From positions 42,344 to 106,343 of the forward strand of contig JAFYAC010000018.1 of NCBI GenBank assembly GCA_017540905.1: 64,000 bases of DNA. The letters are read 5' to 3'. Shown piece after piece: positions 3,366 through 62,295 of the stretch. The stretch is from Kiritimatiellia bacterium. GTDB lineage: Bacteria; Verrucomicrobiota; Kiritimatiellia; CAIQIC01; Lenti-01. The translations under genes were made by a program, and so were the position numbers. The notes under the pieces are model-generated. The model did no database searches, was not told where the DNA came from, and was given only the letters and a program-made list of their open reading frames with translations. Within the stretch, counting starts at the first letter, position 1; the number at the start of each line of letters is the position of its first letter.

Positions 3366-3601
3366 CTGTCGCCCTTCTTGCTCCTTGCATTCGTGGGATT
3401 CCAGAGGTGGTTCCACGATAATCCCCGTAGGACCGAAGGTTTGCGGAGGGGGGTGTTCATGGGGGGAATGGTGCGGTAAATGCGCGGATTGGCGCGGAGT
3501 TTTCCGTAATTGCAAAAGTGGATGGGGGGAGGGCGCGGGGAGGGGAGTCGGATGGGGCGGAGGGTGGCGAAAAAAAGGTGGGGAAAAGAAGCTTTGGCGG
3601 C

Positions 3602-9175: not shown

Positions 9176-10657
9176 ATGGATCTTTCCATCAAAGCCCTCC
9201 ACAAGAACATCGCGGAATGGATGGCCGGCCCCCTCGGCTCCATCCTCATCCACGTCGGCATCATCCTCGCGGCCCTCTTCCTCGTCTCGACCGCCGTCAA
9301 GAAGGAAGAACCCGAGATCGAAGTCCAGGTCGTCGAACCCGACGAGCAGGAACTCGAAGACATCCTCGAGGACCTCAAGCCCCCCGAGGAACTCCCCGAC
9401 ATGGTCGACAACATCACCCCGCCCGACGTCGACATCGACATGACCCCGCCGCCCGACGTCCAGGACTTCACCGCCGCGCCCGTCATGGACACCGTCACCG
9501 AGCTCGACATCGCCTCCGACGCCATCAGCCCCATCATCATGAAGAACCTCGCCCCCGGCAACATGTCCAACCGCTCCGGCGCCGGCCGCGCGGCCGCCAT
9601 CGGCGCCTTCGGCGGCAAGTGGGGCGAATACGCCGAGGCCGCGGTGCTCCGCGCCCTCGAATGGCTCCGCGTCAACCAGAACGACGACGGCTCCTGGGCC
9701 AACTCCAACAAGGAAGCCATGTGCGGCCTGGGCATCCTCACCTTCCTCGCCCACGGCGAAACCACCGCCTCCGAAAAATACGGCCCCACCGTCGAGAAAG
9801 CCATCCGCTACCTCTGCGCCAAACAGAACGAAAAAGGCGAATTCGCCAAGATCACCCCCAACGGCGCCGCCCCCGTCTACACCCAGGCCATCTGCGTCTA
9901 CGCCATCAGCGAAGCCTACGGCATGACCCGCATCGCCTCCCTCAAGGACGTCATGGAAAAAGGCGTTCAGGTCATCATCAACGGCCAGCAGCCCGGCGGC
10001 GGCTTCGACTACGGCTGGAAGAAGGAATCCCGGCGCGACACCTCCCTCGGCGGCTGGTGCTGCCAGGCCATGAAGGCCGCCTACATCGCCGGCGCCGAAA
10101 ACCAGGGCCTCCACGAAGCCATGGAAAAATCCATCAACGACATGAAGGGCGCCCAGCGTGAAGACGGCTACTTCATCTACGCCGACGGCCGCGGCCGCAT
10201 CACCAACATGACCGCCGTCGCCTGCCTCTCCATGCAGCTGCTCGGCCACGGCGAAGACAAGGAAGTCAAGGACGGCATGAAATTCCTCAGCAGCGCCGAC
10301 TGCTCCTGGGACAAGCCGGCCGAATGCCCCCTGTACGCGTGGTACTACATGTCGCAGGCCAAATTCCACGTCGGCGGCAACACCTGGAGCACGTGGAACA
10401 ACAAATTCGCGCCCCTGTACATCCGCCACCAGAACCAGGACGGCAGCTGGGTGAGCCCGGGCGTCACCGGCTTCAAGGAAGGCAAGGACACCGTCGAGCG
10501 CGAATGGATGGGCAGCGAGCACGACAGCAAAGTCTACGCCACGACCCTGGCGGCCCTGACCTTGCAAGTCTACTACCGCTTCCTCCCCACCTACAAACCC
10601 ATCGAAACCGCCACCGAAGAAGCCTCCGACGGCGACGTCGAAATCGAAATCCTGTAG
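9176..10657 (+). CDS. TonB/TolA-like membrane-anchored protein fused to a prenyltransferase/squalene-cyclase-type alpha-alpha toroid repeat domain
   Basis: N-terminal TM helix, acidic Pro-rich spacer (PPEELPDMVDNITPPDVDIDMTPPPDV), then repeats with DDGSW, QQPGGGFDYGW and QDGSW motifs typical of prenyltransferase/SQHop-cyclase repeats. Last gene of the ExbBD operon. Confidence 0.7.
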   Translation: MDLSIKALHKNIAEWMAGPLGSILIHVGIILAALFLVSTAVKKEEPEIEVQVVEPDEQELEDILEDLKPPEELPDMVDNITPPDVDIDMTPPPDVQDFTAAPVMDTVTELDIASDAISPIIMKNLAPGNMSNRSGAGRAAAIGAFGGKWGEYAEAAVLRALEWLRVNQNDDGSWANSNKEAMCGLGILTFLAHGETTASEKYGPTVEKAIRYLCAKQNEKGEFAKITPNGAAPVYTQAICVYAISEAYGMTRIASLKDVMEKGVQVIINGQQPGGGFDYGWKKESRRDTSLGGWCCQAMKAAYIAGAENQGLHEAMEKSINDMKGAQREDGYFIYADGRGRITNMTAVACLSMQLLGHGEDKEVKDGMKFLSSADCSWDKPAECPLYAWYYMSQAKFHVGGNTWSTWNNKFAPLYIRHQNQDGSWVSPGVTGFKEGKDTVEREWMGSEHDSKVYATTLAALTLQVYYRFLPTYKPIETATEEASDGDVEIEIL

Positions 10658-10693
10658 TCCCCTCCTTCCCCCCGGCGGCCCCTCCGCCGCCCC

Positions 10694-10729
10694 GCCGCGC
10701 CGGTCTCCTTTCCCGGCGCGGCGTTTTTG
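10694..10729 (+). terminator. Rho-independent terminator after the ExbBD/TonB-like operon
   Basis: GCCGCGCCGG - 9 nt loop - CCGGCGCGGC followed by GTTTTTGT, immediately after the stop at 10657. Confidence 0.5.
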
Positions 10730-11144
10730 TCGTGAACCCGAGTGCGGGCGGCAACCTGGCGGCAGGCCTGCGGCGGCAAACACGGAGGGGACGGAGGAAA
10801 GAGGCACGGAGGTGTTTTTGGAGAGGGAGTTTGTTGGAGGGGCGTCCGCGCGGCGGAAACGTCCATCAAACTCTATTTGGGTGCGGAAGGAATGACGGCG
10901 GTTTTGCGGCGCCACCTCCCGTACACGGCCCATTGCGGAAAAACGGATGGGGAAGCGGGTGGGGCCTGGGGGCGCGGGCGTCCCGCCCGCGGGGTGCCTG
11001 GAGATGGAAAACCGGTCGAAAAAAAACATGTTTCTCCATGATCTCCCATCCAGCGGCGCGGCTGGAAGCCGCACCTCCGGAAGTCGCGCGATGCTTGTCC
11101 AGAAGGTCTTGCGCCCCTTCCTGGGCCCCGCCCGATGCCCAAGT

Positions 11145-11228
11145 CCATGGCGCGGCTGGAAGCCGCACCTCCCAGCCGGGACGTTCTCCATGGGGAGGGA
11201 CGCCCTTCCGCGCGTCCGCGGAGGGGTA
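11145..11228. repeat. REP-like double-hairpin element, degenerate copy C
   Basis: GTTCTCCATGGGGAGGGACGCCCTTCCGCGCGTCCGCGGAGGGG matches the second hairpin of copies A and B. The upstream GCGCGGCTGGAAGCCGCACCTCC unit is repeated twice (11050 and 11150). Confidence 0.45.
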
Positions 11229-11526
11229 GCGCCAGAAGGGTCACGAGACAATGTGGACGTCTTGGGAGGGCCGCGCTTTGTCGCGGCCGCGCGAACGGGG
11301 TGTTTCAGGCATGTTCCTGAAGAGTCCTGTGGACACGGCCCGGACGAAGCCGGGCCCTCCCGGGATGCGGCTCGGTACGCACTCCACGGGGAGGGGGGCA
11401 CCTTGCGGGAGGGACGCGCTCTGGAGCGGTTGCTCGTGCATGGCCCAGGGATTTCGTGAATGGAGTCGTGCGGAGGCCCCCGTTCGCCCCCACCCGCCAT
11501 GCTGTTTCTTGGACCACCAAAAGACA

Positions 11527-11554
11527 GGAAATGCCATATTTTTCCATAATCTCA
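11527..11554 (-). promoter_or_regulatory. Solo copy of the GAGATTATGGAAA...GCATTTCC promoter-like motif, reading leftward into the gene-poor island
   Basis: Minus strand reads GAGATTATGGAAAAATATGGCATTTCC. Matches the motif upstream of the three paralog genes and the DUF218 gene. Confidence 0.35.
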
Positions 11555-11601
11555 CGCGGCGGGAAGGGAGACGGGAATGGGGGCGGGGGTGGGGGGCGGG
11601 G

Positions 11602-12397
11602 TCAGGCGGAGTGGATGGCGGAGGCGAGGGAGGAGGCGAGGTCGTAGACGGGGCCCGGGGCGTCGCGGCCGTGGGTGGCGATGAGGCGGACGAGGGCGGA
11701 GCCGACGATGGCACCGTCGGAGATGGACGCCATGGCGCGGGCCTGGTCCGGGGTCGAGATGCCGAAGCCGATGGCGGCCGGGACGGTAGAGGCGGCTCGG
11801 ATGGTGCGGAGGATGGCGGACAGGTCGGTGGTGATCCGGGTGCGCTCGCCGGTGACGCCAAGGGAGGAGACGACGTAGAGGAAGCCGGTTGCGGCGCGGG
11901 CGATGGCCGCGATGCGGTCGGCGGAGGTGGGTGCGACCATGGATACGAGGTCGATGCCGTGGGCGCGGCACGGGGCTTCGAATTCGGCGCGCTCTTCGTA
12001 GGGGACGTCGGGAAGGATGAGGCCGGTGACGCCGGCGGCGGCGCAGCGGGCGGCGAAACGGTCGGGGCCCGGGGCGTAGACGACGTTGGCGTAGGTCATG
12101 AAGGCCAGCGGGATGGGGATTTCGCGGCGGAGTTCGGCGGCGAAGGCGAGGATGCGGTCGGTGGTGACGCCCCCGGACAGGGCGCGCGCGTTGGCGGCCT
12201 GGATGACGGGGCCTTCGGCGGTGGGGTCGGAGAAGGGAATGCCGAGTTCGACGAGGTCGGCCCCGGCGTCGGCCAGGGCGTGGACGATGCGGCGCGTGGT
12301 CTCGAGGTCGGGGTCGCCGCAGGTGACGAAGGGGATGAAGGCCTTGTGGCCGGCGGCGAAGGCGGAGGCGAGGGTGGGAGCGACGGGGGCGGCGGGG

Positions 12398-12405
<8 letters not shown>
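11602..12405 (-). CDS. trpA: Tryptophan synthase alpha chain
   Basis: 267-aa ORF with TrpA N-terminal region ([15 protein letters not shown] ... [13 protein letters not shown]). Last gene of the trp operon, overlapping trpB. Confidence 0.9.
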
Positions 12406-15711: not shown

Positions 15712-16524
15712 TCATTTGCGGGCGGAGGAGAGGAAGGTGCGGAGGGTGGAGGGGCGGTCGGGGGAGCGCATGAGGGCTTCGCCGACGAGGGCGGCGTCGG
15801 CGCCGGAGGCGGCCAGGGCGGCGAGGGAGTCGGGGGTGGTCACGCCGGATTCGGCAACGAAAGGGATGTCGGGGGGAACCAGGGAGCGGAGGCGGGCGGC
15901 GTGGGTGAAGTCGACGCTGAAGTCGCGGAGGTCGCGGTTGTTGACGCCGATGAGGCGGGCGCCGGCGCGGAGGGCGGTGTCGATTTCGTCCGGGGTGCGG
16001 GTCTCGACGAGGGCGTCGAGGCCGAGTTCGGCGCAGAGGTCGAGGCGGCGGCGCAGGGCGTCGGGTTTGGTGATGGCCACGATGAGGAGGACGGCGTCGG
16101 CGCCCATGGCGCGGGCCTGCCAGAGCTGGTACTCGGAGATGGTGAAGTCCTTGCGGAGCATCGGGGTCGCGGGGAGGACGGCGCGGACGGAGCGGAAGAT
16201 GTCGTCGGAGCCGAGGAACCAGTCGGGTTCGGTGAGGCAGGAGACGGCGTCGGCGCCGCCGGCGGCGTAGTCGCGGGCGATGTCGAGGGGACGGAAGTCG
16301 GGGGCGATGACGCCCTTGGAGGGGCTGGCTTTCTTGATTTCGCAGATGAGGGCGAGGCGGTCGGGGCGGCGCAGGGCGGCGGCGAAGGAGCGGGCAGCGG
16401 GCCGCGGGGGGAGGTCGCGGCAGATGGCGCGGAGTTCGGGCAATGGCAGGCGGGTGGCGTCGGCGCGGGCGCGGAGCCGGGAGGCGGCGGCCAGCCGGTC
16501 GAGGATGGTGGGGGGCGGGGTCAC
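15712..16524 (-). CDS. trpC: Indole-3-glycerol phosphate synthase (GTG start overlapping the trpD stop)
   Basis: Translation contains [21 protein letters not shown] and ALVETR ... LIGVNNRDL motifs of TrpC. The long ORF 15712..18078 in the track is an artefactual extension. Confidence 0.85.
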
Positions 16525-17561
16525 GGGGCGGCGGGGGCTTCGCGCCGGGAGGCGGCGACGGCGGCGTCGAGGGTGCGGAGGGCGGTGCCGGTGTCGATGT
16601 GGTCGGCGGCCAGGCGTACGGCATCGGCGAGGGAGGAGGCCTTGCCGGCGACGTAGAGACCGGCGCCGGCGTTGAGGAGGACGGCGTCGCGCCGGGGACC
16701 GGTTTCGGCGCCGGAAAGGATGGCGCGGACGATGGCGGCGTTTTCGTCGGGGGTGCCGCCGGCAAGGTCGGTTTTGCTGCCGCGCGGCAGGCCGACGAGT
16801 TCGGGGGTGACGACGAAGGGGGTGATGGTGCCGTCGCGGACTTCGCAGGCGGTGGTGGGGGCGCCGATGGAGAGTTCGTCGAGGCGGTCCTGGCCGTGGA
16901 CGACGAGTCCGCGGCGCACGCCGAGGGTGGGCAGGACGCGCGCGACGGGCTCGACGAGGTGTTCGCTGTAGACGCCGAGGACCATCATGGAGGGACGGGC
17001 GGGGTTGGTCAGGGGGCCGAGGATGTTGAAGACGGTGCGGATGCCGAGTTCGCGGCGGATGGGGCCGACGTATTTCATGGCGGCGTGCATCTTCTGGGCG
17101 AAGAGGAAGCAGAAGTTGGTTTCCGCCAGGACGCGGAGGGAGGCGTCGGGGTCGATGGCGATTTGGTAGCCGAGGGCTTCGAGGCAGTCGGCGGTGCCGC
17201 ATTTGGAGGAGGCGGCGCGGTTGCCGTGCTTGGCGACGGGGACGCCCGCGGAGGCGATGACCATCGCGGAGGTGGTGGAGATGTTGAAGGTGTGGGCTTC
17301 GTCGCCGCCGGTGCCGACGATGTCGAGGACGTCGAGGCCGGGGTGCGGGACGGACAGGGCGTGCTCGCGCATGGCGGCGGCGCAGCCGGAGATTTCGTCG
17401 GCGGTTTCGACGCCGGCGCTCTTGGTGGAGAGGGCCGCCAGGAAGGCGGCGTTCTGGGTGGGCGTGGTCGCGCCGTCCATGATTTCGTTCATCACGGCGT
17501 AGGCTTCGGCGTAGGTCAGGTCTTGTTTGTTGACGATTTTGACGATGGCTTCTTTGATCAT
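16521..17561 (-). CDS. trpD: Anthranilate phosphoribosyltransferase
   Basis: 346-aa ORF with [15 protein letters not shown] and [12 protein letters not shown] motifs. Confidence 0.9.
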
Positions 17562-17573
17562 GGGGGGCTCCGG

Positions 17574-17717
17574 GGTCGTTGGGTCGTTGGATCGTTGGGT
17601 CGTTGGATCGTTGGATCGTTGGGTCGTTGGATCGTTGGGTCGTTGGATCGTTGGATGGTTGGGTCGTTGGATGGTTGGATGGTTGGATTGGTGGGGGGAA
17701 TTTCAGAATTTCAGATT
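17574..17717. repeat. Tandem array of about 15 units of the 8-bp repeat RTCGTTGG, followed by 4 units of ATTTCAGA, in the trpG-trpD spacer
   Basis: Seen directly: gggtcgttgg atcgttgg gtcgttgg ... atggttgg attggtgg, then aatttcagaatttcagatttcagatttc. Confidence 0.85.
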
Positions 17718-19789: not shown

Positions 19790-19893
19790 GGGGGTGGGGT
19801 CCTTTGCGTCGTGTTTCTATACATAGAAACACATCGGCCGCGGGGTGTCCAGAAAATTATTGGGCAGGGGGACGGGAGGAAAGGAGATGTCAA

Positions 19894-19920
19894 GAGATTA
19901 TGGATTCTTGTTGACATTCC
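19894..19920 (+). promoter_or_regulatory. Conserved promoter-like motif GAGATTATGGATTCTTGTTGACATTCC upstream of paralog A
   Basis: Begins about 54 nt upstream of the ATG at 19947. Equivalent motifs sit at the same distance upstream of paralogs B and C. Confidence 0.4.
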
Positions 19921-19946
19921 ATCGGAGAATTGCAATCGTCATCCGC

Positions 19947-20864
19947 ATGAAAACAGAACTCCTCAATGCCTTGAACAACACGGGAAAAGTCTTCGCGGCG
20001 CTCGACGCCCACAACCGGGACAGCATGGGGCCCTACCAGGCGCGGAACTTCCTGCCGGTGCTGATGGCGCTGACGCCGCCGCTGTTCGTGTTGTTCGCCG
20101 CGACGGAAGTCGGCGCCTGGTGTTTCGCGGAACTGGCCCGCCAGGTGCGGATACGGGAAAAGCGGCCGGATTCGCCGTCGCTGCGCGGCGCGCCGAAGCC
20201 GAAGGAAATCGAAGAGGATTGGGGCGCGCAGCCGCGGTCCGTGCTGACTTGCCTGCGGCTGGGGTCGCGGTTGGCGGACCTTGACCCGACGCTGGACCAC
20301 TCGCTGGTGCGCAAGAGGGATGCGCACGGGCGGATGGTCATCCGCGCGCGCAAGGGCGGGGTGAAGGGGTGGCTGGAGGACCGGCGGGTGGCCGTCGGCT
20401 ACTCGACGGTGATGCGTTACAAGAAACTGGCACAGCGGTTGAGGAGGGTGTTGCGGTTGGATGACCGCCTTCCGTTGGAATGGGTGGCGGAAGGGTTGCC
20501 GGAGGGACAGCGGCTTCCTGCGGGGCTGGAGGGGCCCTTCGCGGCGGCGCGGCGGAGGCTGGGGCGGATTCTGAGGGAGAACCCGACGCTGGTGGCGCTG
20601 ACGCGGATGGCGGAGAAGGAGCTGGGGATCGTGCGGCTGGTGGCGGTTCGGAAGGAGGGGAGGAGGGGTGGAAAAGGAAGGAAAAACAATGAGAATTCCA
20701 TAATCTCGCGAGTTCGGACGGTGGCGGCGACGGAGGAGAGGGTGGAGGCGACGAGGGAAGCGATGGGGAGGTTGCTGGGGACCGAAAACCTGTCGGGCGG
20801 GGCGCTGCACCTGCAGAACCGGCTGAAGGTGTGGCTGGGGCGGGTGGCGTCCGAAGGGGGCTGA
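19947..20864 (+). CDS. Hypothetical protein, paralog A of a three-member family in this window
   Basis: About 305 aa. Shares LRLGSRLADLDPTLDH, GGVKGWLEDRRVA, YSTxMRYKKLAQRLR, ENPTLVAL and LGIVRLVAVRK blocks with 54205..55122 and 61338..62267. Start set at MKTELL; the track ORF begins further upstream inside the motif. Confidence 0.6.
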   Translation: MKTELLNALNNTGKVFAALDAHNRDSMGPYQARNFLPVLMALTPPLFVLFAATEVGAWCFAELARQVRIREKRPDSPSLRGAPKPKEIEEDWGAQPRSVLTCLRLGSRLADLDPTLDHSLVRKRDAHGRMVIRARKGGVKGWLEDRRVAVGYSTVMRYKKLAQRLRRVLRLDDRLPLEWVAEGLPEGQRLPAGLEGPFAAARRRLGRILRENPTLVALTRMAEKELGIVRLVAVRKEGRRGGKGRKNNENSIISRVRTVAATEERVEATREAMGRLLGTENLSGGALHLQNRLKVWLGRVASEGG

Positions 20865-20961: not shown

Positions 20962-22539
20962 ATGAAAAAAGTGCTGATTCCGACGGCGCTCGACGCCATT
21001 GCCAAGGACACCCTGGAAGCGCACGGCGGGTACGCCGTGGTGCAGGTCCCGAAATGCGACCTCGCGGAGCTCGCCGCCGCCAACCCCGACACGCACGCGC
21101 TCATCGTGCGCAGCGAAAAGGTCACGCCCGAAATCATCGATCTGATGCCTTCCCTGAAGGTCATCGTGCGCGCGGGCGCCGGGTACAACACCATCGACAT
21201 CAAATACGCCCGCAAGAAGGGCATCGACGTGATGAACACCCCGGGCGCGAACTCGAACGCGGTCGCGGAGGAGGTCATCGCGCTGATCCTCGCCGACGCG
21301 CGCCACCTGGTGGCCGCCGACGCCTCCTGCCGCGCGGGCAAGTGGGAGAAGTCGTCCTTCATGGGGACGGAGCTGACTGGCAAGACGCTCGGGATCGTGG
21401 GGCTGGGGTACATCGGCCAGCTGGTGGCGAAGCGGGCGTCGGGGTTCGAGGTCAAGGTGCTGGGGTACGACCCCTTCACGTCGGAAGAGAAGGCCCGCGC
21501 GCTGGGGGTGGAGCTGGTGGGGCTGCCGGAGCTGTTCGAGCGGGCGGACTACGTGACGCTGCACGTCCCGGAGAACGACGAGACGCGCGGGATGGTCAAC
21601 AAGGCGCTGCTCTCGCGCATGAAGAAGGGGGCCACGCTGCTGAACTGCGCGCGCGCGGGAATCCTCGTGGAGGAGGACGTGCGGGCGGTGCGGGCGGAGA
21701 AGGGGATCCGCTTCCTGAACGACGTGTACGCGAAGGACGCGGAGGGGCCGAAGAGCGTCGCGGACATCGCCGACCTGATGCTGCCGCACCTCGGCGCGAG
21801 CACGCGCGAGGCGAACCGCAAGGCGGCCGAGCTGTCGGCGCGCGAGCTGATCGACCTCGACGACAACGGCATCACGAGCGCGGTGGTGAACCGCGCGGTG
21901 CCAGCGGGGCTGGACCCGGCGTTCGCGCGGCTGGCGAACCTGCTCTCGCGCATCTGCCGCAAGACGCTGGGCGCGTCGGCGCGGCTGAAGCTGGTGGAGG
22001 CGCGCTACTACGGGTCGCTCAAGCCCTACGCGGACTGGCTCCTGACGCCGGTGGCGGCCGGGCTGAGCGCGGAGTACGACACCGGGCTCGACCACAAGGG
22101 CACGCTGAAGTTCCTCGCCGACATGGGCGTCGACTACGTGGAGCGCGAGGTGGACGAGGCCAAGGCCTACACCAACTCCATCACGCTCGACCTGACCGGC
22201 AACATCGACGCGGAGCACCTGGTCCGCGCGAGCGTGCGCGGCACGGTCGAGGAAGGCAACCTGCTGCTGTCGCGCATCAACGACTTCGACAAGCTCTACA
22301 TGGAGCCCGCCGGCAACTGGGCCGTGTTCGCGTACGACGACCGCCCCGGCGTGCTCGGGCGCATCGCGGCGGCGCTGGCGGCGCACGGGATCAACATCGA
22401 CGACGTCCGCAACCCGCACGACTCGCACGGGCACACGTCGCTGGCGATCCTGCGCGTGAACCGCCCGCTGGGCGACGAGCTGGTCGAGCGCATCCGCGCC
22501 GACATCGGCGCGAGCATCGCGTTTCACATTGAGATGTGA
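20962..22539 (+). CDS. serA: D-3-phosphoglycerate dehydrogenase with C-terminal ASB/ACT regulatory domains
   Basis: RBS AAGGAG; NAD-binding GIVGLGYIGQ; D-2-hydroxyacid dehydrogenase catalytic region; long C-terminal ACT-containing extension. 526 aa. Confidence 0.9.
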   Translation: MKKVLIPTALDAIAKDTLEAHGGYAVVQVPKCDLAELAAANPDTHALIVRSEKVTPEIIDLMPSLKVIVRAGAGYNTIDIKYARKKGIDVMNTPGANSNAVAEEVIALILADARHLVAADASCRAGKWEKSSFMGTELTGKTLGIVGLGYIGQLVAKRASGFEVKVLGYDPFTSEEKARALGVELVGLPELFERADYVTLHVPENDETRGMVNKALLSRMKKGATLLNCARAGILVEEDVRAVRAEKGIRFLNDVYAKDAEGPKSVADIADLMLPHLGASTREANRKAAELSARELIDLDDNGITSAVVNRAVPAGLDPAFARLANLLSRICRKTLGASARLKLVEARYYGSLKPYADWLLTPVAAGLSAEYDTGLDHKGTLKFLADMGVDYVEREVDEAKAYTNSITLDLTGNIDAEHLVRASVRGTVEEGNLLLSRINDFDKLYMEPAGNWAVFAYDDRPGVLGRIAAALAAHGINIDDVRNPHDSHGHTSLAILRVNRPLGDELVERIRADIGASIAFHIEM

Positions 22540-23694: not shown

Positions 23695-24831
23695 CTACGG
23701 GAGGTAAGGGGCGAGGGCGGAGAGGACGGCGGGGAGGGAGATGGCTTCCATGCATTCGTGGGTGGGGCGGAGGCAACGGGCGGCGGGGTTCCAGTATTCG
23801 CAGCCGGGACAGCGGAGATGGAGGCGGATGTGGCGGTGGGTGGGGCCGGAGGGCGCCCATTTGGCGGGTTCGGTGGGGCCCCAGAGGGACAGCGTGGGGC
23901 ATCCGGCGGCGGCGGCGAGGTGCATGGGGCCGGAGTCGTTGCCAATCCACAAGGCTGCGCGGGACATGACGGCGGCGAGGAGGTCGAGTTCCAGGCGGCC
24001 CATCCAGTTTTTCCCGGGGAGGGGCGTGGAGGGGAATAGAGCGGAAGCTTCGGCGGCGGTGCCCAGCCAGGCGACTTGGGCGCGGTTGGCGGAAAGAAGC
24101 GCGTCGGCGAGGGCAAGGTAGCGGTCGGCGGGCCAGTTCTTGCCGGGCCAGCCGCTCCCGGGGGAGAGGAGGACGAGCGGGCGGGCGGGGTCGATGGCTT
24201 CGGCGGCGAGGAAGGCGTCCGCGGCGCGGAGAAGGTCCGGGGGGAGCGGGAAGAAAAGGGCGGCGCGGGCGGGCTCGGGCTCGATGCCGAAGGGGCGCAG
24301 GAGGGCCAGCTTGGAGAGGGATTCGGGGACGTCCTTGGCGTAGGGGGTGAAGTGGGTTTGTACCGACGGATGCACGCGCGGGGGGCGCCGGTCGCCCATG
24401 CCGGACCAGATGGAAGGGCGCAGCATGTTGGCCAGCCAGCGGGCTTCGGGGCTTTCGTTGGCCGTCGAGACGAAGGCCGCGGGGGCGAGGCACCGGAGGC
24501 GCAGGCCCAGACGCCACTGGGCGGCGGCGGACTGGCGGAGGGGGGATTGGCCGCGGTGGTAGGAGAGGTGGTCGGGGGCGAAGGGTACGATTTCGGAGAC
24601 GCAGCTGGCGAAGTGCTTCGCCAGGGCGAGCGACCAGGGGCCGACGAGCCAGGTCGTATGCCAGTCGGGGCGGTCCTCGCGGAGGGCGCGGAGCATGGGG
24701 GCGGTGTGCAGGATGTCGCCGAGGTGGCCCGGGGTGAACACGACGGCGTTCGGCGGCGCGCCCGGGGACGGGGGCGGCGGCGCGGGAAGGCGGCGGGCCA
24801 GGGCGTCGAGGATGTGGTAGCGTCCGATCAT
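23695..24831 (-). CDS. Glycosyltransferase family 9 (heptosyltransferase-like) protein
   Basis: GT9-like C-terminal motifs (LLSPGSGWPGKNWP ... IGNDSGPMHLAAAAGCPTLSLWGPT). ATGA overlap with the upstream DUF218 gene. Confidence 0.7.
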   Translation of the reverse strand: MIGRYHILDALARRLPAPPPPSPGAPPNAVVFTPGHLGDILHTAPMLRALREDRPDWHTTWLVGPWSLALAKHFASCVSEIVPFAPDHLSYHRGQSPLRQSAAAQWRLGLRLRCLAPAAFVSTANESPEARWLANMLRPSIWSGMGDRRPPRVHPSVQTHFTPYAKDVPESLSKLALLRPFGIEPEPARAALFFPLPPDLLRAADAFLAAEAIDPARPLVLLSPGSGWPGKNWPADRYLALADALLSANRAQVAWLGTAAEASALFPSTPLPGKNWMGRLELDLLAAVMSRAALWIGNDSGPMHLAAAAGCPTLSLWGPTEPAKWAPSGPTHRHIRLHLRCPGCEYWNPAARCLRPTHECMEAISLPAVLSALAPYLP

Positions 24832-25634
24832 GGGGCGGGGGAAGCGGCGGGGACTGGCTTTGGGCGGAAACCGCGGAGATGGCGGTAGGCCCAGCCGGCG
24901 TAGAGTTCCTTGAAGAGGCCGCAGTTGGTGCCGAACACGATGACGTCGGGGTACAGCCAGTTGATGGCAAACCCGTCGGCGCATCGGATCGAGGTCTCGT
25001 GGTCGGTCGGCGCGGGGAGGACGCCGAGCCCGGCATGGCGGAAGAGGAGTTCGGCCCGGCGCATGTGCGAGGCGGAGGTCACGAGCAGGATGGGGGTTCC
25101 CGGCGGCAGGAGGGCGGCGACCCGGCGGGATTCTTCCTCGGTGTTGCGGGCACCGTCGATGCAGGTGATGGCGTCGGGGGGTACGCCGAAGTCGAGGAGG
25201 AGGGGGAGGGTCGAGACGGTGGTGTCGCGTCCGGTGGCGACGATGCGGGGGGCCTTGCCGGCGCGGTAGAGGCGGACGCCGTGCCAGACGCGGTCGGCGG
25301 AGTGGGTGAGGTCGGGGTAGGGAAAGGCTCCGTTGGTGGCGCAGGTGGCGCCGCCGCCGAGGATGACGATGGCGTCGGCGGTGGGGGCGGCCTCCACCGG
25401 GATGGCGGGATAGGCGCCCTCCAGGGGGCGGGAGAGGCACCAGGCCGCCAGCGGGGTGCCCCAGAGCCAGAACCAGAGGACGGACGCCAGGAGGAGGCCG
25501 AACGTCCATCCGCGGGCGCGCGGCGTGGGTCTGCGCAGGGCGAGGCCGGCCAGGATGGCGGTGGCCAGCAGGAGGAGAACCCCCAGTGCAAGGGGATTGA
25601 GGAGCGCGGATACGAAATGGTTGAAGGTTGCCAT
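24828..25634 (-). CDS. DUF218 (YdcF/SanA/ElyC-like) membrane-anchored protein
   Basis: N-terminal TM helix, then the DUF218 core (AIVILGGG ... LLVTSASHMRRA). Confidence 0.7.
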   Translation of the reverse strand: MATFNHFVSALLNPLALGVLLLLATAILAGLALRRPTPRARGWTFGLLLASVLWFWLWGTPLAAWCLSRPLEGAYPAIPVEAAPTADAIVILGGGATCATNGAFPYPDLTHSADRVWHGVRLYRAGKAPRIVATGRDTTVSTLPLLLDFGVPPDAITCIDGARNTEEESRRVAALLPPGTPILLVTSASHMRRAELLFRHAGLGVLPAPTDHETSIRCADGFAINWLYPDVIVFGTNCGLFKELYAGWAYRHLRGFRPKPVPAASPAP

Positions 25635-25759
25635 GGCGGGGGGCGCCGCCGGTTGGGGCGGCATGGGGGAGTTTGGCGGGCCAGCAGGCACAACTCAAGC
25701 GAAAACGCGCGGGAGGGGAGGAGGTGTGTGCATGGGGGTGATGATGGGGTGAAATGGTT

Positions 25760-25787
25760 GGAAATGCGTGTAATTTCCATAATCTCA
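25760..25787 (-). promoter_or_regulatory. Copy of the GAGATTATGGAAA...GCATTTCC motif about 130 nt upstream of the DUF218 gene
   Basis: Minus strand reads TGAGATTATGGAAATTACACGCATTTCC. Confidence 0.35.
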
Positions 25788-26050
25788 TAGCACGGGGGAA
25801 GAATCCCCGCGGGGGCAGGGAAAACAGTGAGCAAAGCGGGGATTTCGCGAGGGAGGGAGGTGGATTTCGGAGAATGGCGCGAGTGTACGGGGAGGGGGGA
25901 GGGAGAGCAAAGAAACATTGGGTGTTTCGCTTGTTTCCGCTTTTCAGAAGACTCGCGGGCGGGTCGCCATCGCCCCCAGTCGGTGCCCGACGGGCATGGG
26001 GCAGAGCGCAACATGGTGATTGGCAGGCGCCCCGGCCCTCTCCGAAGGCT

Positions 26051-43975: not shown

Positions 43976-44216
43976 GGTGTGGAAAATACATCGCCGCCGT
44001 TTTGATGTCAATCAGGCACGAAGGTTTGCCTGCGGGAAAGGCTACTGCGGCTGTAAGTGAAAGAAGCGAAGAGATTCCCCTTGTTCAACTTTGCACTTGC
44101 CCCAATCCTCCGGGCAAGGCATTGTTTTCTTGAAGACCCTTCCGACACGCCCAGAAAAGACATTGGAAGGGATTCCGACAAAACCCATCCCAGGTGGACA
44201 GGAAGGATTGCAAAAA

Positions 44217-47200
44217 ATGAAGCGAAACACAGATTTGTTTTTGAGTAAACTTTTCGTTCCCACGCTATTCACACTTTTTACGCTCTTTGTTGTTCCTTTG
44301 TTGGCATCATCCGCCAATGCGATGACCGCCGAGAAAGCCGCAGATTTGTTTTTGGCGAACAATTCGGTGCCTCAGGATGTCCAGAGGAGAAATGTACCTC
44401 GCAGTTTTACCGACAAGGCGCCGGATGCCACCGATATTTGCTTTGTTGTCAAAGCGGGGGATTCCACGGCAGGTAATATGGGGGTTACCTGTGGCCATGG
44501 GGAGGACATTACGTTTTCCATCCCCATTCGGCGATACTATGGAACGGCCGATCAAATCCAAAGGCTGATTCAAAACGGTGGATTGCCGAAAAAGGCCAAG
44601 CTCCGCATGTTTGTCTATGATGTGGATTCTGCCGGTGCACCTAGTTATGGTTATTCACCTGAAAAAGATATTCTCTATGTCAACGGAGGATGCAAGGTAG
44701 GGGAACTCTATGGAGCAGACAATGAATGGAGAGAGGATGAGTTCGAAATCGATATCTCCAACTTGAAGTTCCCCTCTTCGCCCGGGGCTGTTGCAGAAAA
44801 CACGTTTAAGATTGTTGTTGACTACAATAACGAAGGGTGGATTACAAAGGTTAATTGGGTTGCGTTGGAGATACCTGCGGCACCACCTGTGGTGATATCG
44901 CATGGCATACGCAAGAAGCAAGGCAAGCCAACCCTGCCAGATTTAGTGGAAGAAATCGAGGCACTAGGTTTGCCAACCCATACATTCAGCTATCGACAAA
45001 ATGGTAACTCATCAATTCGCGATGGGGCGAGCCAACTCGCAGGAGAAATCGTCAAAGCCAAAGAAATGTGGCATGTCGACAAAGTGACGATAGTTGCACA
45101 CAGCATGGGCGGATTAAAGGCACGTGAATACACGACGGCATTTGATCCCCAGGGACTTAGCGTTGACAGAGTCCTTCAGATTGCAACCCCAAATGGGGGG
45201 GCTGAGTTGGCCGACATCCAACAAATGACAGAAATTGGGTTGGAAAATCCCGATCTTGATCCTGGTATGACAGCACCAATCCAGTTTTTGTTATGGCTTA
45301 AGGATTTTACTGGACCAGCCTATGCAGATTTGACGGTAAAAGCGATGGCCGCATACAACAAAGAACATAAATTAAATAGCAATGTAAAGTATTCCGTTAT
45401 CGCTGGTGATGTTGGGGACGGAAGCGATACCGTTGTTTCGGTCTCCAGTGCGCATACGATGGTTCAGCCTAATACCTTTTCTCCTTTACAACTTCCGTAT
45501 GCAAGTCATTCAGGCCTTGTTGACAAGCCAACTTTTGGAACCCGGGGATGTGTTGGTACGACGGTCGCCTGCCTGAAAAAAGACCTCCTTGCTAAAAGAG
45601 GAGTGAAGAATCAAAATTCAAAACGAATACAGATTCAGTCGAATCAATATAAGAAAGAGGTCAAGAAGGAACAAGTATATATTCAATCAGGAGTTCAAGC
45701 TGCTCCATTGGAGCTGACACAAATTCCAATCTCTATTAAAAACTCTTCTCCCGTTCGGGTTTGGCTTTTTGTTGAAAATGGCGATATTTCATCAATCAAG
45801 CTCGTTGATTCTAATGGTATCGAACATCAAGAATCCTCAGATGGTGTGTATATCTCCATGCTTGATTACTGTGGAATTATCTCTCTACCAAATCCAGTAC
45901 CTGGGGTGTGGAGGCTCAATTTTGAATCGTCTGGTGTCGAGTGTCGTGCCTGGGCACTTCTTGTCCATGAAGATGATTCCAATATAGAATTAAATGCTAA
46001 GTTGGCGGCAGAAACTGTACACGTTGGCAATGCCTTCTCTGTGTCTATGAAGCCAATGATAGATGGCAAGTATCAGACGGGGCGTTCATGTGTCGTTATT
46101 GTGCGCTTCCCGGACAGCTCTTCTGCAGTCTACCGACTACAGCACATAGGAAACGGGGTGTATTCGGCTCCAATTCCTGCACCTATCGAGGGGCGGTATT
46201 CAATGGTTGCTCAGATGACAATTGACGGTAAGGTTTATACAAGTCATTTTTTCGGGAGTGCGCATGCCTCTACCGCAACCATCGGCGCGGACGCTGGAAG
46301 CGGCCCCGTGGACGAGGATGGCGACGGGATGTACGACTGGCTCGTGGCAAAGATTGGCATTGCCGGTGCGGATGCATCGAAGGCCTACCGCGTCTTGGCA
46401 GAACTGGTCGATGCGGACGGGGCGCACATCGAATGGGCAACTGGAACTGCAGAGGCCGGGGAGACCTTTGCCGAATTGTATTTCAACGGGGCCGTCGTTT
46501 TCGAGCACGGAAAGACTGCAAAATATGTCATCACCGATGTCCGGCTTTTCGAAACGGGCGACGACTGGGAGGTGCAGACAGATGCCCGCTCGAACTGGCT
46601 GCAACTGGACGGGAGCACATGGGCGACATTCAACCACGAGCTGGTTTCCGTCGCTGGCACGGGTTCGGATTCCATTGTTTGGCCTACTGGCTCCCAAACG
46701 GGGAATCTCTCCGTCGGACTCGATGTCAACTTCGATGTTGCCATTACGGGAGCCTACAACTACAGCGCTTCGCTGAGGGCTTCCGATGGCGCCCTGATTT
46801 CGTCCGCATACGGAACGACAAGGCTCTCGTCATCAGTTTCCGAGGGCATCGGAACGCAACGCGTCTCCATGACCTTTTCAGGTGCGGACATCATCGCCGC
46901 CGGAAAGGCGGGCCCCTGGGTTGTCACGGACGTGCTGCTTTGGAATAGCAGCAACGAGCTTTCTGCCGAAGGCGAATATGAGACGCGGGCGTGGAGTGTG
47001 GGTGACTTCAAGACGACAACCCTATCGAAGCTGGCGATTTCCGGTCCCGCGAGCGTGGCGTCCGGCAACTCCGCCACCTACACCTGCAACGCGAGCTACT
47101 CCGACGGGACGAGCAAGCGCGTGTCGCCGACGTGGACGCTGTACTCCGGCGGATCTTACGGCAGCATCACGTCGGGCGGTGTGTTCACGGCCTGCGAGAC

Positions 47201-50200
47201 CACGGTGGAGAGGACCGTGACCATCCAGGCCACGTTCGGAGGAAAGACGGCGAAGAAGACGGTGACGGTGGCACCCAAGGAGGTGCAGACCGTATCCTTC
47301 GACAGGGGTGACGGGACCGCGGCCGCGGCATCGCGCACGTACACGGTCGCAGAGCAATACGGTTCCTTCCCCATGGCGACGTTGGCCGGACAGGCCTTTG
47401 TGGGGTGGTTCACCCACCGGGTGGGCGGGACGCAGGTGCTGGAAACGGACGTCGTGCCCCCTTCTTGGCCCTCGCGGACGCTTTTTGCGCACTGGACAAC
47501 AGAGCAACGGTTGGGGTTCAATGCCAACGGGGGAACCTGCTCGAACATCCTGATTTTCACCACGATTGGCGGATCGTACCCGGCACTCCCGACGGCCAGC
47601 CGGCCCGGATATGCCTTCACCGGCTGGTACACAACGGCCAGCGGCGGGAGCCTGGTGCAGGCCGGTGACGCGGTGACCGCCACGGCGGAACGGACCCTTT
47701 ACGCCCACTGGACGAGGAAGCAAGTGCTTTACTTCAACGGCGTCGACGGGGAACCCGCCGTGGCCTGCCGAACCAACACCATCGGGGCTGCCTACGGCAA
47801 GCTCCCGACGGCGACGTTGGCCGGGCAGGCTTTTGTGGGGTGGTTCACCCACCGGGTGGGTGGGACGCAGGTGCTGGCGACGGACATCGTGCCGGAGTGG
47901 ACGCCGCGGACGCTTTTCGCGCACTGGACAAATGTGCAGACGGTCGTTTTCGACGCAAACGGTGGCAGCACCCCCGAGTCGCAGCGGGCGAGGACAATTG
48001 GGGCATCGTACGGAACTCTGCCGGCGGCGACACGGTCGGGACATGCACTGCTGGGTTGGTACACGAAAGCAAGCGGGGGAACGGCCGTCTCGGCCGGCGA
48101 CACGGTGACGGCCGTGGCCACGCGGACGCTGTATGCGCACTGGACGGACAAGCAGGTGGCAACCTTCAAGGGCAACGGAGGGACGCCGTCGACGCAGAAA
48201 ACCACGAACACCATCTATGCGACATACGGGGCCATGCCGACGGCCAAACAGTCCGGGCACGTATTCCTCGGCTGGTTCAACGCGGCCGTGGGCGGGAAGC
48301 AGGTGTACACGAACTCGACGGTCACCTTGGCCGCGGCGCGGACGCTGTACGCGCACTGGACCGACCAACAGGTAGTGACATTCAGGGGCAACGGAGGGAC
48401 GCCCTCGACGCAGAAGACGACGAACACGATCTACGCGAAGTACGGGACATTCCCATCGGTGACATGGGCGAACCACGTGTTCCTCGGGTGGTACACCGAG
48501 GCCTCGGAGGCGGACGGCAAGCGGGTGTACACGAACTCGACGGTCACGCTGGCCGACACCAGGACGCTTTGGGCTCAGTGGACGGACAAGCAGGTGGTCA
48601 CGTTCAGGGGGAACGGCGGGTCACCGGACGTACAGCGGCTCACGAACACGATGGGCAAGGCGTACGGCACCCTGCCGGAGCCGAAGCGCTCGGGGCAGGT
48701 GTTCCAGGGCTGGTTCACGGCGGAAGAAGGGGGAACCCAGGTGAAAGGGACGGACAAGGCGACGGCCGCAACCGCACGCACGCTGTGGGCCCACTGGACC
48801 GACCGCCAGGTGACGGTATTCAAGGGCAACGGGGGGACGCCCAAGACCCAGCGGATGACGAACACCATCTATGCCGCTTACGGGGAGTTGCCGACCGCGA
48901 CGCTGTCGGGACACGTGCTCACGGGGTGGTACACGGCGGCCGATGGCGGCAAACGGGTGTACACGAACTCGACGGTCACCTTGGCTGCGGAGCGGACGCT
49001 GTACGCGCACTGGAGCGACCGGCAGGTGGTGACGTTCAAGGGCAACGGTGGGACACCCTCGACGCAGAAGACGACGAACACGATCTACGCGAAGTACGGG
49101 GCGTTCCCGTCGGTGTCGTGGGCGAACCACGTGTTCCTCGGGTGGTACACGGCCGCCTCCGAGGGGGACGGCAAGAGGGTGTACACGAACTCGACGGTCA
49201 CGCTGGCCGGCACGAGGACGCTTTGGGCGCAGTGGACGGACAAGCAGGTGGTCACGTTCAGGGGGAACGGCGGGACACCGGATGTCCAGCGGCTCACGAA
49301 CACGATGGGCAAGGCGTACGGCACCCTGCCGGAGCCGAAGCGCTCGGGGCATGTGTTCCAGGGCTGGTTCACGGCGGAAGAAGGGGGAACCCAGGTGAAG
49401 GGGTCGGACAAGGCGACGGCGGCGACCGCACGCACGCTGTGGGCCCACTGGACCGACCGCCAGGTGACGGTATTCAAGGGCAACGGGGGGACGCCCAAGA
49501 CCCAGCGGATGACGAACACAATCTATGCCGCTTACGGGGAGTTGCCGACCGCGACGCTGTCGGAACACGTGCTCACGGGGTGGTACACGGCGGCCGATGG
49601 CGGCAAACGGGTGTACACGAACTCGACGGTCACCTTGGCTGCGGAGCGGACGCTGTACGCGCATTGGACCGACCAGCAGGTGGTGACGTTCAAGGGCAAC
49701 GGGGGGACGCCCTCGGCGCAGAAGACGACGAACACAATCTACGCGAAGTACGGGGCGTTCCCGTCGGTGTCGTGGGCGAACCACGTGTTTCTCGGGTGGT
49801 ACACGGCCGCCTCCGAGGGGGATGGCAAGAGGGTGTACACGAACTCGACGGTCACGCTGGCCGACACCAGGACGCTTTGGGCTCAGTGGACGGACAAGCA
49901 GGTGGTCACGTTCAGGGGGAACGGCGGGTCACCGGACGTCCAGCGGCTCACGAACACGATGGGCAAGGCGTACGGCACCCTGCCTGAGCCGAAGCGCTCG
50001 GGGCAGATGTTCCAGGGCTGGTTCACGGCGGAAGAAGGTGGAATCCAGGTGAAGGGGACGGACAAGGCGACGGCGGCGACGACTCGCACGCTGTACGCGC
50101 ACTGGAGCGACCGGCAGGTGGTGACGTTCAAGGGCAACGGTGGGACGCCCTCGACGCAGAAGACTACCAACACCATCTATGCGGCATACGGAACCCTGCC

Positions 50201-53004: not shown

Positions 53005-54084
53005 TTACGCGTTCGCGCGGATTTCGATGACGTCGCCGTCCTGGACGACGTAGCCCTTGCCTTCGAGCCGCAGGAGGCCCGCTTCCCGGCACGCGGCGTG
53101 CGTCTTCTTCTCGATCAGCGTCTCCGCCGGAACCGTCTCCGCGCGGATGAAGCCGCGCGCCAGGTCCGTGTGGATCTTCCCCGCCGCCGTCACCGCGTCC
53201 GAGCCGCGGCGCAGCGTCCACGCCCGAACCTCGTCCTCGCCGACCGTGAAGAAGCTGATCAGGTCCAGCGTCCGGTAGGCCGCCCGGATCAGGCGGTCAC
53301 GCGCAGGCTCCTCCAGTCCGTAGTCCGCCAGGAAGCCCGCCTGGTCGCCTTCCGCCAGCGCCGCGATTTCCGCCTCCAGCGGCGCGCAGAACGCCAGCAT
53401 CCGCAGGCCCAGCTTCCCGCACGCCTCCGCGAGGGCCGTGCACGCCGGGCCCTCCCCCTTGGGATCGTCCTCGCCCGTGTTCGCGATGACCAGCGCCGGC
53501 TTCTGCGAGAGGAAGCAGAAGCTGCTGATCCGCTTCCTGTCCTCCTCCGAAAGCTCCACGTCGCGCAGCGCCTTCCCGCCTTCGATCGCCTCCTTGCAGC
53601 GCTCCAGCACCTCCAGCTCCGGCAGGCCCTGCTTCAGCCCCCGCTGCACCTCCTGGCGGATCTTTTCCGTGCGCCGTTCGATCTTCTCCAGGTCCGCCAT
53701 CGCCAGATCCAGCAGCAGCGATTCCAGCTGCGCGGGCGGATCCAGCGGCTTGCCCTCCGCGTCCGTCTCCCCGTACGCCTGGACCACCACCGCGAAGGCG
53801 TCCGCCTCGCCGAGGAACGCGTTCATCGCCGCGAACCCGTTGCCCTCGCCGGCGTGCGCCGGGAACGCGACGTCCGTGAAGGTCACCTCCGCCGGAATGT
53901 ACTTCTTGGGGTGGAACAGGTCCCGCAGGGTGGCCAGGCGCGCGTCAGGCACCTTGACGGTGCCGAGCCGGTGGCCGCCCTTCGTGGCGAAGTGCGGGCC
54001 TTCCGGCGTCTGCACCAGCGCGTCGAACACCGACGTCTTCCCCGCCCCTCTCGCCCCGACCAGATACAACGACAAAGCAGCCAT
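53005..54084 (-). CDS. YchF/Obg-family GTP-binding protein with C-terminal TGS domain
   Basis: P-loop GARGAGKTS, coiled insert, and C-terminal TGS-like GYVVQDGDVIEIRA. Divergent from canonical YchF at the N-terminus. Confidence 0.7.
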   Translation of the reverse strand: MAALSLYLVGARGAGKTSVFDALVQTPEGPHFATKGGHRLGTVKVPDARLATLRDLFHPKKYIPAEVTFTDVAFPAHAGEGNGFAAMNAFLGEADAFAVVVQAYGETDAEGKPLDPPAQLESLLLDLAMADLEKIERRTEKIRQEVQRGLKQGLPELEVLERCKEAIEGGKALRDVELSEEDRKRISSFCFLSQKPALVIANTGEDDPKGEGPACTALAEACGKLGLRMLAFCAPLEAEIAALAEGDQAGFLADYGLEEPARDRLIRAAYRTLDLISFFTVGEDEVRAWTLRRGSDAVTAAGKIHTDLARGFIRAETVPAETLIEKKTHAACREAGLLRLEGKGYVVQDGDVIEIRANA

Positions 54085-54152
54085 TCGGAAATCCTTTCTT
54101 GTTCGCCCCCCAGTAAACCACACCCGCCCCGCCCGCGCAACCCCCATCCGGC

Positions 54153-54179
54153 GAGATTATGGAAAATCATTGACATTCT
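54153..54179 (+). promoter_or_regulatory. Conserved promoter-like motif GAGATTATGGAAAATCATTGACATTCT upstream of paralog B
   Basis: Begins about 52 nt upstream of the ATG at 54205. Confidence 0.4.
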
Positions 54180-54204
54180 TCCCATTATCCACAATCCTGT
54201 CCCC

Positions 54205-55122: not shown

Positions 55123-55214
55123 CGCGTCGTGCCGGTCGGGCGGGGTGCGCAAAGATGGTTCCGTGGGGGGGGCGCCGTTGGAGTGCGCCGGACGGGGAGG
55201 GAAGGCGGAAGGGG

Positions 55215-61213: not shown

Positions 61214-61254
61214 CGCGGCAAGGGGGGAAAAGCACCCATTCCGGGGCGGGACGG

Positions 61255-62267: not shown

Positions 62268-62295
62268 GGGTGGGGAGTGTGGGGGAGGAAGGGGG

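Follow-up and report, generated by a model that had tools for sequence, protein, structure and literature searches.

A protein family of rumen Kiritimatiellae whose genes carry a promoter-like module upstream and an inverted copy of its box in the coding sequence

In the lac (O1/O2) and gal (OE/OI) systems, an auxiliary operator lies inside coding sequence and acts through DNA looping. Here we describe a family of genes with a related layout. Three paralogs lie in a 64,000-nucleotide stretch of DNA from a Kiritimatiellia bacterium (assembly GCA_017540905.1, contig JAFYAC010000018.1, positions 42,344 to 106,343), which we will call the window. Each gene is preceded by a short box, which is part of a promoter-like module, and has an inverted copy of the box near the 3' end of its coding sequence. 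As with the lac and gal operators, a site at the promoter is matched by a site hundreds of base pairs downstream in the open reading frame (ORF), where it shares its nucleotides with codons. But the internal element of this family is an antisense promoter-like module of ~200 nt instead of a bare operator; also, the module is dispersed across the genome, and the arrangement is found in at least 11 paralogous units per genome.

Several other systems are similar in part. Genes for REP-associated tyrosine transposases (RAYTs) are reportedly flanked by inverted repetitive extragenic palindromes (REPs) or REPINs, in work attributed to Nunvar et al. (2010) and to Bertels and Rainey (2011). Here too, a gene is bracketed by an inverted short repeat that is also scattered between genes, often at convergent 3' ends, and each gene lineage has its own variant of the repeat. 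However, the protein of our family shows no HUH/Y1 motifs and is modelled as mostly helical, and none of 75 members has a match to Pfam's Y1_Tnp (E ≤ 10). Also, one of the bracketing copies is inside the coding sequence, there are at least 10 paralogs per genome instead of one to a few, and the repeat at the same time forms a promoter-like module that includes an ATG. In some insertion sequences (ISs), the promoter of the transposase lies in the left inverted repeat, and miniature inverted-repeat transposable elements (MITEs) such as the Correia elements of Neisseria carry outward promoters. Our family resembles these in being a single-ORF unit of ~1 kb with multiple copies in different contexts, with a box that overlaps the promoter region at the left edge, a partner in inverted orientation toward the right, and paired ends that co-evolve. 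It differs in that the partner on the right lies 155 nt within the unit, we found no target-site duplications, near-identical copies, or transposase homology, and the paralogs belong to old lineages that have syntenic orthologs. In the excludon concept, convergent sense and antisense promoters give rise to antisense RNAs at the 3' ends of genes. Our family also has a promoter-like element near the 3' end that faces back into the gene, and solo modules are placed likewise at other genes; but here this element duplicates the module of the gene itself, lies in codons, co-evolves with its partner, and is present family-wide. Finally, a parS site lies inside the spo0J/parB gene, so that a DNA-binding protein has a site within its own coding sequence and more copies on the chromosome (in our family, DNA binding is putative). 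Unlike ParB, our family has no ParB-like domain and has many paralogs, and its site is asymmetric, not palindromic, and paired with an inverted copy at the promoter. No known family fits. The logic is closest to operators within ORFs, RAYT/REP systems, ISs with a promoter in the left repeat, and antisense promoters at 3' ends, and some of the features that define ISs, RAYTs, and invertible switches were not found.

The three paralogs are 57–64% identical to each other and have long identical blocks. GAGATTAYRGAAAA/GAGATTAYRGAWWM precedes all three; the box starts 53, 52, and 54 nt before the ATG of paralogs 1, 2, and 3, and TTGACA or TTGCAT comes next (Table 1). The inverted internal boxes are 154–157 nt ahead of the stop codon and encode S-I/V-I-S-R. 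These genes and their boxes had been reported in a first-pass annotation, and the coordinates and identical blocks checked out, except that its third internal copy (61505–61526) was a few bases off. Its inventory of six copies was also incomplete. In the window, whose G+C content is ~67%, GAGATTAYNGRA has eight matches with at most one mismatch, while 1.5 are expected and none of 100 shuffles reached eight. Six of these are the boxes of the paralogs, and the other two (starting at 11553 and 25786, minus strand) are outside the family. GAGATTA occurs 35 times across 215 kb (the window and 20 related loci), every time with YRGAAAA-like sequence after it, which makes the element highly specific.

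We used paralog 2 as the query for homology and structure work. The homologs are "hypothetical proteins" of ~305 amino acids, and the named sources are all Kiritimatiellae metagenome-assembled genomes (MAGs), which have several paralogs each. When we scanned species-representative genomes, three MAGs of rumen Kiritimatiellae had the family, with at least 11 copies in one and at least 7 in another (some at contig ends), and a metagenome scan contributed 51 further loci. We examined box positions in the loci from other assemblies that are at least 53% identical to paralog 2 and have both regions present (n = 52). Both boxes were at fixed positions in all 52: the upstream box precedes the ATG by 51–55 nt (by 44 nt in two loci), and the internal inverted box is 755–782 nt past the ATG and 148–211 nt ahead of the stop codon. 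In a subfamily with 41–50% identity, a variant box, TTGCAATCACGTGAAATC, is found at the same promoter position.

The alignment of the upstream regions reads cCCCATnnnGC, GAGATTAYRGAAAAmc, n1-3, TTGACA/TTGCAT, N17, CATCMT/AATCCT, N6-7, ATGAAmAC. That is, the module spans ~70 nt and comprises CCCCAT, the 16-nt box (tCGCGAGATTAYRGAAAAmc), a TTGACA-like -35 hexamer, a weak -10 hexamer (nAnnnT), and the ATG ~53 nt after the start of the box. The TTGACA/TTGCAT hexamer is 17 nt past the start of the box and nAnnnT is 17 nt further on; only A2 and T6 of the -10-like hexamer are conserved, and the ATG follows after 6–8 nt. None of 51 family genes has a Shine-Dalgarno-like tetramer at -20 to -4, as compared to 10 of 11 other genes in the window. 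We infer that the module is a sigma-70-type promoter with a weak -10 and that transcription starts at or beside the ATG, and it is plausible that family genes are expressed from leaderless mRNAs. The first-pass annotation had proposed a dedicated promoter, perhaps leaderless, that defines a small regulon. The promoter-like module, its fixed distance to the ATG, and the missing Shine-Dalgarno sequences agree with the first half of that proposal, but the same module is also found near unrelated housekeeping genes and at convergent 3' ends, so "dedicated" and "small regulon" should be dropped.

Specifically, we found 32 further copies of the module in ~420 kb of flanking DNA, or about 1 per 13 kb, with the same boxes inside as in the family's modules. 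We call these solo modules. In 17 of the 32, an ATG lies at +51 to +55. Fifteen are co-oriented with the next gene, which is mostly 78–285 nt downstream, and the other 17 point toward the 3' end of a convergent gene, so there is no orientation bias. Co-oriented copies precede genes of varied function (similar to aroE, nagB, alr, and kinase genes and, in the window, to DUF218 genes), which argues against a small dedicated regulon. Several of the convergent-facing copies abut the gene's intrinsic terminator (such as ...CCCATGAAAAAAGCCGCGCG-AAC-CGCGCGGC in locus L034), and alr in L046 is flanked by a module at its 5' end and, just beyond its terminator, by another that is opposed to the first. 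Short palindromic pairs of boxes also occur (L002 7754–7799, L001 6035–6080, and L046 5271–5306). We saw no sign of recent copying among solo modules (the highest identity between spacers was 0.72).

Two other kinds of sequence in the window may be mentioned here. Two convergent intergenic regions (61254–61317 and 1683–1742) have 2–3 tandem copies of a palindromic unit of 22–31 nt, GTTTTCCAATGATTGGAAAAAA. One of these arrays is directly after the stop codon of paralog 3, and the unit has ATTGGAAAA/TTTTCCAAT in common with the box. It might serve as a terminator in both directions, or the factor that reads the box might also bind there. Also, the ~940 nt between a plus-strand gene and the stop codon of trpA (10657–11600) have no convincing gene. 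One of the solo modules stands at the start of this region, which also holds a degenerate palindromic pair of boxes, GGGAGATCATGGAGAAAC...GGTTTTCCATCTCC (~11010–11055, minus strand), and two copies of GAGGTGCGGCTTCCAGCCGCGCC.

The internal box is read as F-S-V/I-I-S-R from TTT TCN GTA/ATA ATC TCG CGN. Valine at the box is encoded by GTA in 10 of 10 correctly framed cases, while GTA accounts for just 2.7% of the valine codons elsewhere in these genes. ATA (2.9% of isoleucine codons) and TTT (10.5% of phenylalanine codons) are likewise forced at the box. At loci with the GAGATTC variant of the box, the residue becomes glycine (GGA), so the peptide follows the DNA. The encoding residues (229–255) form a disordered, K/R/G-rich linker, which is the only internal segment of the AlphaFold model with a predicted local distance difference test score (pLDDT) under 50. 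Synonymous codons are affected well beyond the box. At four-fold degenerate sites, the skew between G and C (G3-C3) is -0.85 to -0.45 over most of the coding sequence, rises to ~+0.4 in the ~200 nt around the internal box, and is ~0 at the stop codon. All 53 loci show this reversal, with more G3 in the 3' segment than in the 5' segment, while in other genes of the window, the sign of the skew rarely differs between the two halves. The strand of the box is C-rich from about -150 to +100 in solo, upstream, and internal modules alike, which implies that the gene carries an entire antisense module, written by synonymous choices. On the antisense strand, internal copies also have GTTTTCC at +21 and TTTTC at +31, as genuine modules do, and the paralog-2 clade has CCCCCATG at +52 as well (in paralog 2 itself, the box is followed by GTTTTCC, TTTTTC, and CCCCCATG). 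Given the forced rare codons and the local reversal of the skew, the internal copy, which the first-pass annotation had also called a cis element, is kept by selection on the DNA itself. This suggests that each gene is part of a self-contained unit, regulatory or mobile, of a type that had not been recognized.

Around paralog 2 (53800–55400), the GC skew of the plus strand goes from -0.46 at the 5' end of the gene to +0.45 at its 3' end, and this coincides with a shift over the neighboring genes from a C-rich plus strand (51–54.7 kb) to a G-rich one (54.8–64 kb). Part of this is the family-wide reversal of synonymous skew, and the rest may reflect a rearrangement breakpoint inside the gene. 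More broadly, genes in the window fall into two classes at four-fold sites, strongly C-ending (-0.7 to -0.8) or G-ending (+0.2 to +0.6), with no simple relation to strand (examples are 11602–12405, 20963–22539, and 53005–54084).

The two boxes of a locus also evolve together. When we mapped position 7 of the box onto the protein tree, we found that it changes concordantly in both copies. In the clade of L005, L008, L010, L014, L045, and L048, A changed to C or T, with more concordant switches between C and T; in L022, on a terminal branch, both copies have G; and in L054 and L056, the internal copy changed from A to T after the upstream copy was already T. Paralog 1 and L042 both have GGA(A)TTC in place of GGAAAA. 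By inspection of the tree, there were about six concordant events and about ten single-site events. Permutations also showed an excess of similarity within loci in the 16-nt core (0/5000), and none in the 26 nt downstream or the 8 nt upstream; because these permutations make no correction for shared ancestry, the count from the tree carries more weight. That the excess is limited to the core argues against ordinary gene conversion and favors selection for matched sites. The two copies, which the first-pass annotation had linked because of their identity, probably interact or have a common binding factor. The clade with variant boxes has private substitutions in the protein at otherwise conserved residues (I67L, R133N, and A215S), but we view these as a lead and not as evidence.

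What does the protein do? We found no match to it in Pfam, NCBIfam, or PHROGs (for Pfam, none in 75 members even at E ≤ 10), nor in sequence or profile searches of the PDB, and Foldseek with the core of the model (pLDDT of 96) had no hits, including to winged-helix proteins. So the statement that the family has no known domain stands. The model is mostly helical, with one beta hairpin and with two hydrophobic helices at the N-terminus, and the 50 residues beyond the internal box are both conserved and modelled with confidence. Among 1.84 billion representative proteins, a profile search identified 353 relatives (sequence clusters) at E ≤ 1e-3, none of which has a Pfam domain or a name. This superfamily has a core of ~120 residues (...LRFGSxLxDLE..VD...GxKGWL....YxTAMRYKxLAxRLRQ) in proteins of 250–577 amino acids. 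One conserved segment (VKGWLED-RRVAIP-YSTAMRYKKLAQRLR) has a short helix, then a turn, then a long helix rich in K/R, and this helix-turn-helix-like arrangement suggests DNA binding.

Distant members of the superfamily have boxes as well. L073 (397 amino acids) has GAGATTC and GAGATTTCACGG upstream and the inverted GCGAGATCAAGGAAATTTTCCGG (GCGAGATCAAGGAAAT) inside its coding sequence. L079 (283 amino acids) has GAGATTTCACGTTTTCCTTGACTTCC upstream and the inverted GGGATTATAGAAAGG at another place in the protein, again as ATA ATC codons. L077 (309 amino acids) has GAGAATACAAAAAAATATTGATTTTC upstream and the inverted GAGATTACAAAAAATATT 250 nt past its stop codon. And in L072/L076 (514/534 amino acids), ten copies of GATTAYGTTGCGGACGAA, in both orientations, lie within 3 kb around and inside the gene, with none in the other 7 kb. 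Thus, the association of gene and box recurs over large evolutionary distances. Between the clusters of GATTAYGTTGCGGACGAA, at 7300–7560 of L076 and 2360–2430 of L072, we also noticed ~13 tandem units of 15–16 nt (similar to GGTCGGGCYGGTTGGC), which look like an array of the iteron or centromere type.

We propose that the upstream module is a leaderless promoter, that the internal module is its antisense twin, and that one box-binding factor reads both, with feedback by antisense transcription, a roadblock, or looping. We estimate a probability of roughly 40% for this proposal. The upstream copy would drive the gene, with transcription starting at or next to the ATG. The two copies would be partner sites, a convergent pair that is read by the same factor. 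Once the factor is bound at the internal copy, that copy would either fire antisense transcription through the gene, or else block transcription or loop the DNA; in each case, feedback would be built into the unit. As the reader of the box, we favor the encoded protein, whose autoregulatory binding the first-pass annotation had also raised, because the boxes of a locus change together and, mainly, because distant relatives are associated with their own versions of the box. Since solo modules are abundant and their contexts are diverse, the reader might instead be a general host factor.

Several observations do not fit our proposal well. A scan with the E. coli-type sigma-70 consensus called no promoter in the family, and the -10 fits TATAAT at just 3 of 6 positions. 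It is uncertain if the internal copy fires, because a recognizable -10 is missing from most internal copies and TTG is at the -35 position in only about half of them. The internal copy was not detectable in the subfamily with 41–50% identity. DNA binding by the protein is suggested by the helix-turn-helix-like segment, but Foldseek matched neither a winged helix nor any other fold, and the segment that would recognize the box is invariant even in the clade with variant boxes. And as modules stand at unrelated genes, about one every 13 kb, the box could be read by a general host factor, with no part for the family's protein.

These genes would be a clear example from nature of how a cis element of ~200 nt can lie within coding sequence, with forced rare codons, a local reversal of synonymous choices, and co-evolution with the promoter, at over 50 loci. 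They also define a promoter-like module that had not been described before, probably with leaderless initiation, in the Kiritimatiellae, an uncultured group from the gut and rumen for which we know of no promoter data. The orphan superfamily, with its confidently predicted but unmatched fold, would either regulate itself through these sites or be the partner of a dispersed repeat. Gene callers and codon-based analyses of selection would misread such regions.

More boldly, the family and the wider superfamily (at least 353 clusters) might be the trans-acting partner of the ~70-nt module, as a DNA-binding or DNA-processing protein with a fold that has not been seen in solved structures. It might mobilize or maintain the repeats, as a new IS/MITE-like or RAYT/REPIN-like class that is unrelated to known transposases. 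Or, it might be a promoter-recognition factor with many paralogs that defines a class of leaderless promoters in the Kiritimatiellae. In both versions, the protein's own gene is bracketed by its sites. We consider this broader idea unlikely, but worth stating.

An alternative is that the boxes are just a pair of operators, without an antisense promoter, and that the encoded protein or another repressor binds both of them and acts by looping or as a roadblock, as for lac O1/O2 or gal OE/OI. Operators would account for matched sites ~810 bp apart in the promoter and in the coding sequence, for concerted evolution that is limited to the 16-nt core, and for the lack of a -10 in most internal copies, and the K/R-rich helix-turn-helix-like segment is highly conserved. 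However, the core would suffice for an operator, yet the T-tract boxes and the 200-nt composition signature of the entire module are kept. Also, the same modules stand alone at many unrelated places, and the fold offers no evidence for DNA binding. We find a pure operator pair doubtful.

We also considered that the family might be a protein-repeat system of the IS/MITE or RAYT/REP type. The protein would then be an enzyme of an unknown class that binds or processes DNA, the boxes would be its recognition ends, the solo modules would be non-autonomous or relic copies, and any regulation would be secondary. The family does spread as a discrete unit of ~975 bp (module plus coding sequence). Many copies have 84–94% DNA identity but unrelated flanks, with homology from 0–15 nt before the box to at or just before the stop codon. 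For instance, except for L021, members of the paralog-2 clade lack paralog 2's neighbor ychF, even at the protein level, and copies with 84–91% identity are in unrelated flanks. The number of copies (at least 11 and at least 7 in two MAGs, in unrelated contexts and with several at contig ends) also fits a mobile element, as does the concerted evolution of the paired boxes, which resembles that of the two ends of an IS. The palindromic pairs of boxes in L002, L001, and L046, the clusters of boxes in both orientations around the gene in L076, and the solo modules beside terminators in convergent intergenic regions, as for REPs, point the same way.

This seems inconsistent with the position of the inverted copy, which is not terminal: the left box is at the left border of homology, but the other is ~155 nt inside the right border (the stop codon), and the protein is conserved and modelled with confidence for another 50 residues after it. 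The protein has no similarity to any family of transposases or recombinases (DDE, HUH, serine, or tyrosine), and we found no target-site duplications. (The flanking CCCCAT was a candidate, but it is part of the module's consensus: left/right identity was 3.45 within a module and 3.51 between modules, with 3623/5000 permutations at or above the observed value.) So the scenario that the first-pass annotation was concerned about, a known IS protein with ordinary terminal repeats, can be set aside. Furthermore, there are no near-identical copies (the closest non-syntenic pairs are 91–94% identical), identity between the spacers of solo modules is at most 0.72, and the paralogs belong to old lineages, with syntenic orthologs that have 96–98% identity and common flanks (paralog 1 and L042, paralog 2 and L021, paralog 3 and L037, and L004 and L007). 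Sharp borders of homology at 85–90% identity may, in part, only mark where selection ends. Overall, we think such a protein-repeat system rather improbable. The unit is also a substrate for recombination: among L005, L008, and L010, which are family loci from two MAGs, L005 is a mosaic, with 3.3 kb of left flank as in L010 and 450 nt on the right as in L008, which suggests that homologous recombination between dispersed copies rearranged these genomes.

Another explanation is that a general host factor (for instance, a subunit of RNA polymerase or a global regulator) is the box's only reader, and that antisense modules at 3' ends are common throughout the lineage. The family's protein would be uninvolved, and the internal copy would have been engulfed when the ORF was extended at its C-terminus. 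The 17 of 32 solo modules that point into the 3' end of a convergent gene, alr in L046 with a module at both ends, the inverted copy after the stop codon in L077, and the diverse functions of the genes after solo modules are as this predicts. But it would not explain why box variants are concordant within each locus, or why boxes recur around distant genes of the superfamily, including the cluster in L076 that is restricted to the gene. We therefore doubt that a host factor is the entire explanation.

Inverted repeats with matching cores that evolve in concert, and homology breakpoints at the edge of the box, are also what one would expect of a DNA switch, in which a site-specific recombinase flips the 810-bp segment to turn the gene off or to change its C-terminus. 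However, all ~55 of the full-length loci that were assembled are collinear and in the same orientation. The upstream flank, often occupied by a divergent housekeeping gene, encodes no alternative C-terminus. In over half of the loci, the two boxes do not have the same central YR dinucleotide, and single copies of the box are common. We noticed no recombinase beside the loci, although we did not search for one systematically. A switch is very improbable.

Lastly, pairing of the 5' untranslated region with the 3' coding sequence in RNA (another suggestion of the first-pass annotation), or a local hairpin, might control translation or stability, as the two boxes are complementary on one strand and a GGAAAA/TTTTCC hairpin is possible in 79% of cells, but this is hardly credible, because the upstream box is ahead of the -35-like hexamer and hence should be outside the mRNA, RNAalifold finds no consensus structure, covariation of GGAAAA/TTTTCC is no better than in shuffles (114/500), the R position of the box is often mismatched between copies, and a search of the window against Rfam had no match.

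Table 1. Positions in the window of the three paralogs, their modules and boxes, and the modules outside the family.
Feature	Position	Strand	Details
Paralog 1, coding sequence	19947-20864	+	305 amino acids
Paralog 1, upstream module	19882-19949	+	Box GAGATTATGGATTCTT 19894-19909; TTGACA 19911-19916; 17-nt spacer; -10-like AATCGT 19934-19939; ATG 19947
Paralog 1, internal inverted box	20692-20707	-	GAGATTATGGAATTCT on - strand; encodes N-S-I-I-S-R with rare ATA codon
Paralog 2, coding sequence	54205-55122	+	305 amino acids
Paralog 2, upstream module	54141-54207	+	Box GAGATTATGGAAAATC 54153-54168; TTGACA 54170-54175; -10-like AATCCT 54193-54198; ATG 54205
Paralog 2, internal inverted box	54947-54962	-	GAGATTACAGAAATAT on - strand; encodes I-S-V-I-S-R with rare GTA codon
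Paralog 3, coding sequence	61338-62267	-	309 amino acids
Paralog 3, upstream module	62265-62333	-	Box GAGATTACAGAAAACA from 62321; TTGCAT; -10-like CACACT; ATG 62267
Paralog 3, internal inverted box	61498-61513	+	GAGATTACTGAAAAAC on + strand, antisense to the gene
Solo module	25731-25798	-	Box from 25786(-), then GCATTTCC, CATCAT, and CATG at +53; upstream of the gene at 24828-25694(-)
Solo module	11498-11565	-	Box from 11553(-), 50 nt downstream of the trpA stop codon; points into ~900 nt without a convincing gene
Weak variant module	3458-3525	-	GCAATTACGGAAAACT, CATG at +53; box like the variant of the distant subfamily

Elsewhere in the window, we noticed a large ORF (44091–50843, plus strand) of 2250 amino acids with a lipase-like GHSMGG motif. 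The G+C content of its first ~2.5 kb is 0.44–0.57, as compared to ~0.67, and this part may have been acquired. The last 2.4 kb of the ORF (48117–50540) consist of ~11 tandem units of 216 nt, or ~72 amino acids ('...TLYAHWT..QV.TF.GNGGTP...GW(Y/F)T'), similar to the repeat domains of cell-surface proteins. Also, in the trp cluster on the minus strand, an 8-nt tandem repeat of TCGTTGGA (17576–17688; 14 copies with 88% matches) lies between the trpD-like (16521–17561) and trpG-like genes.

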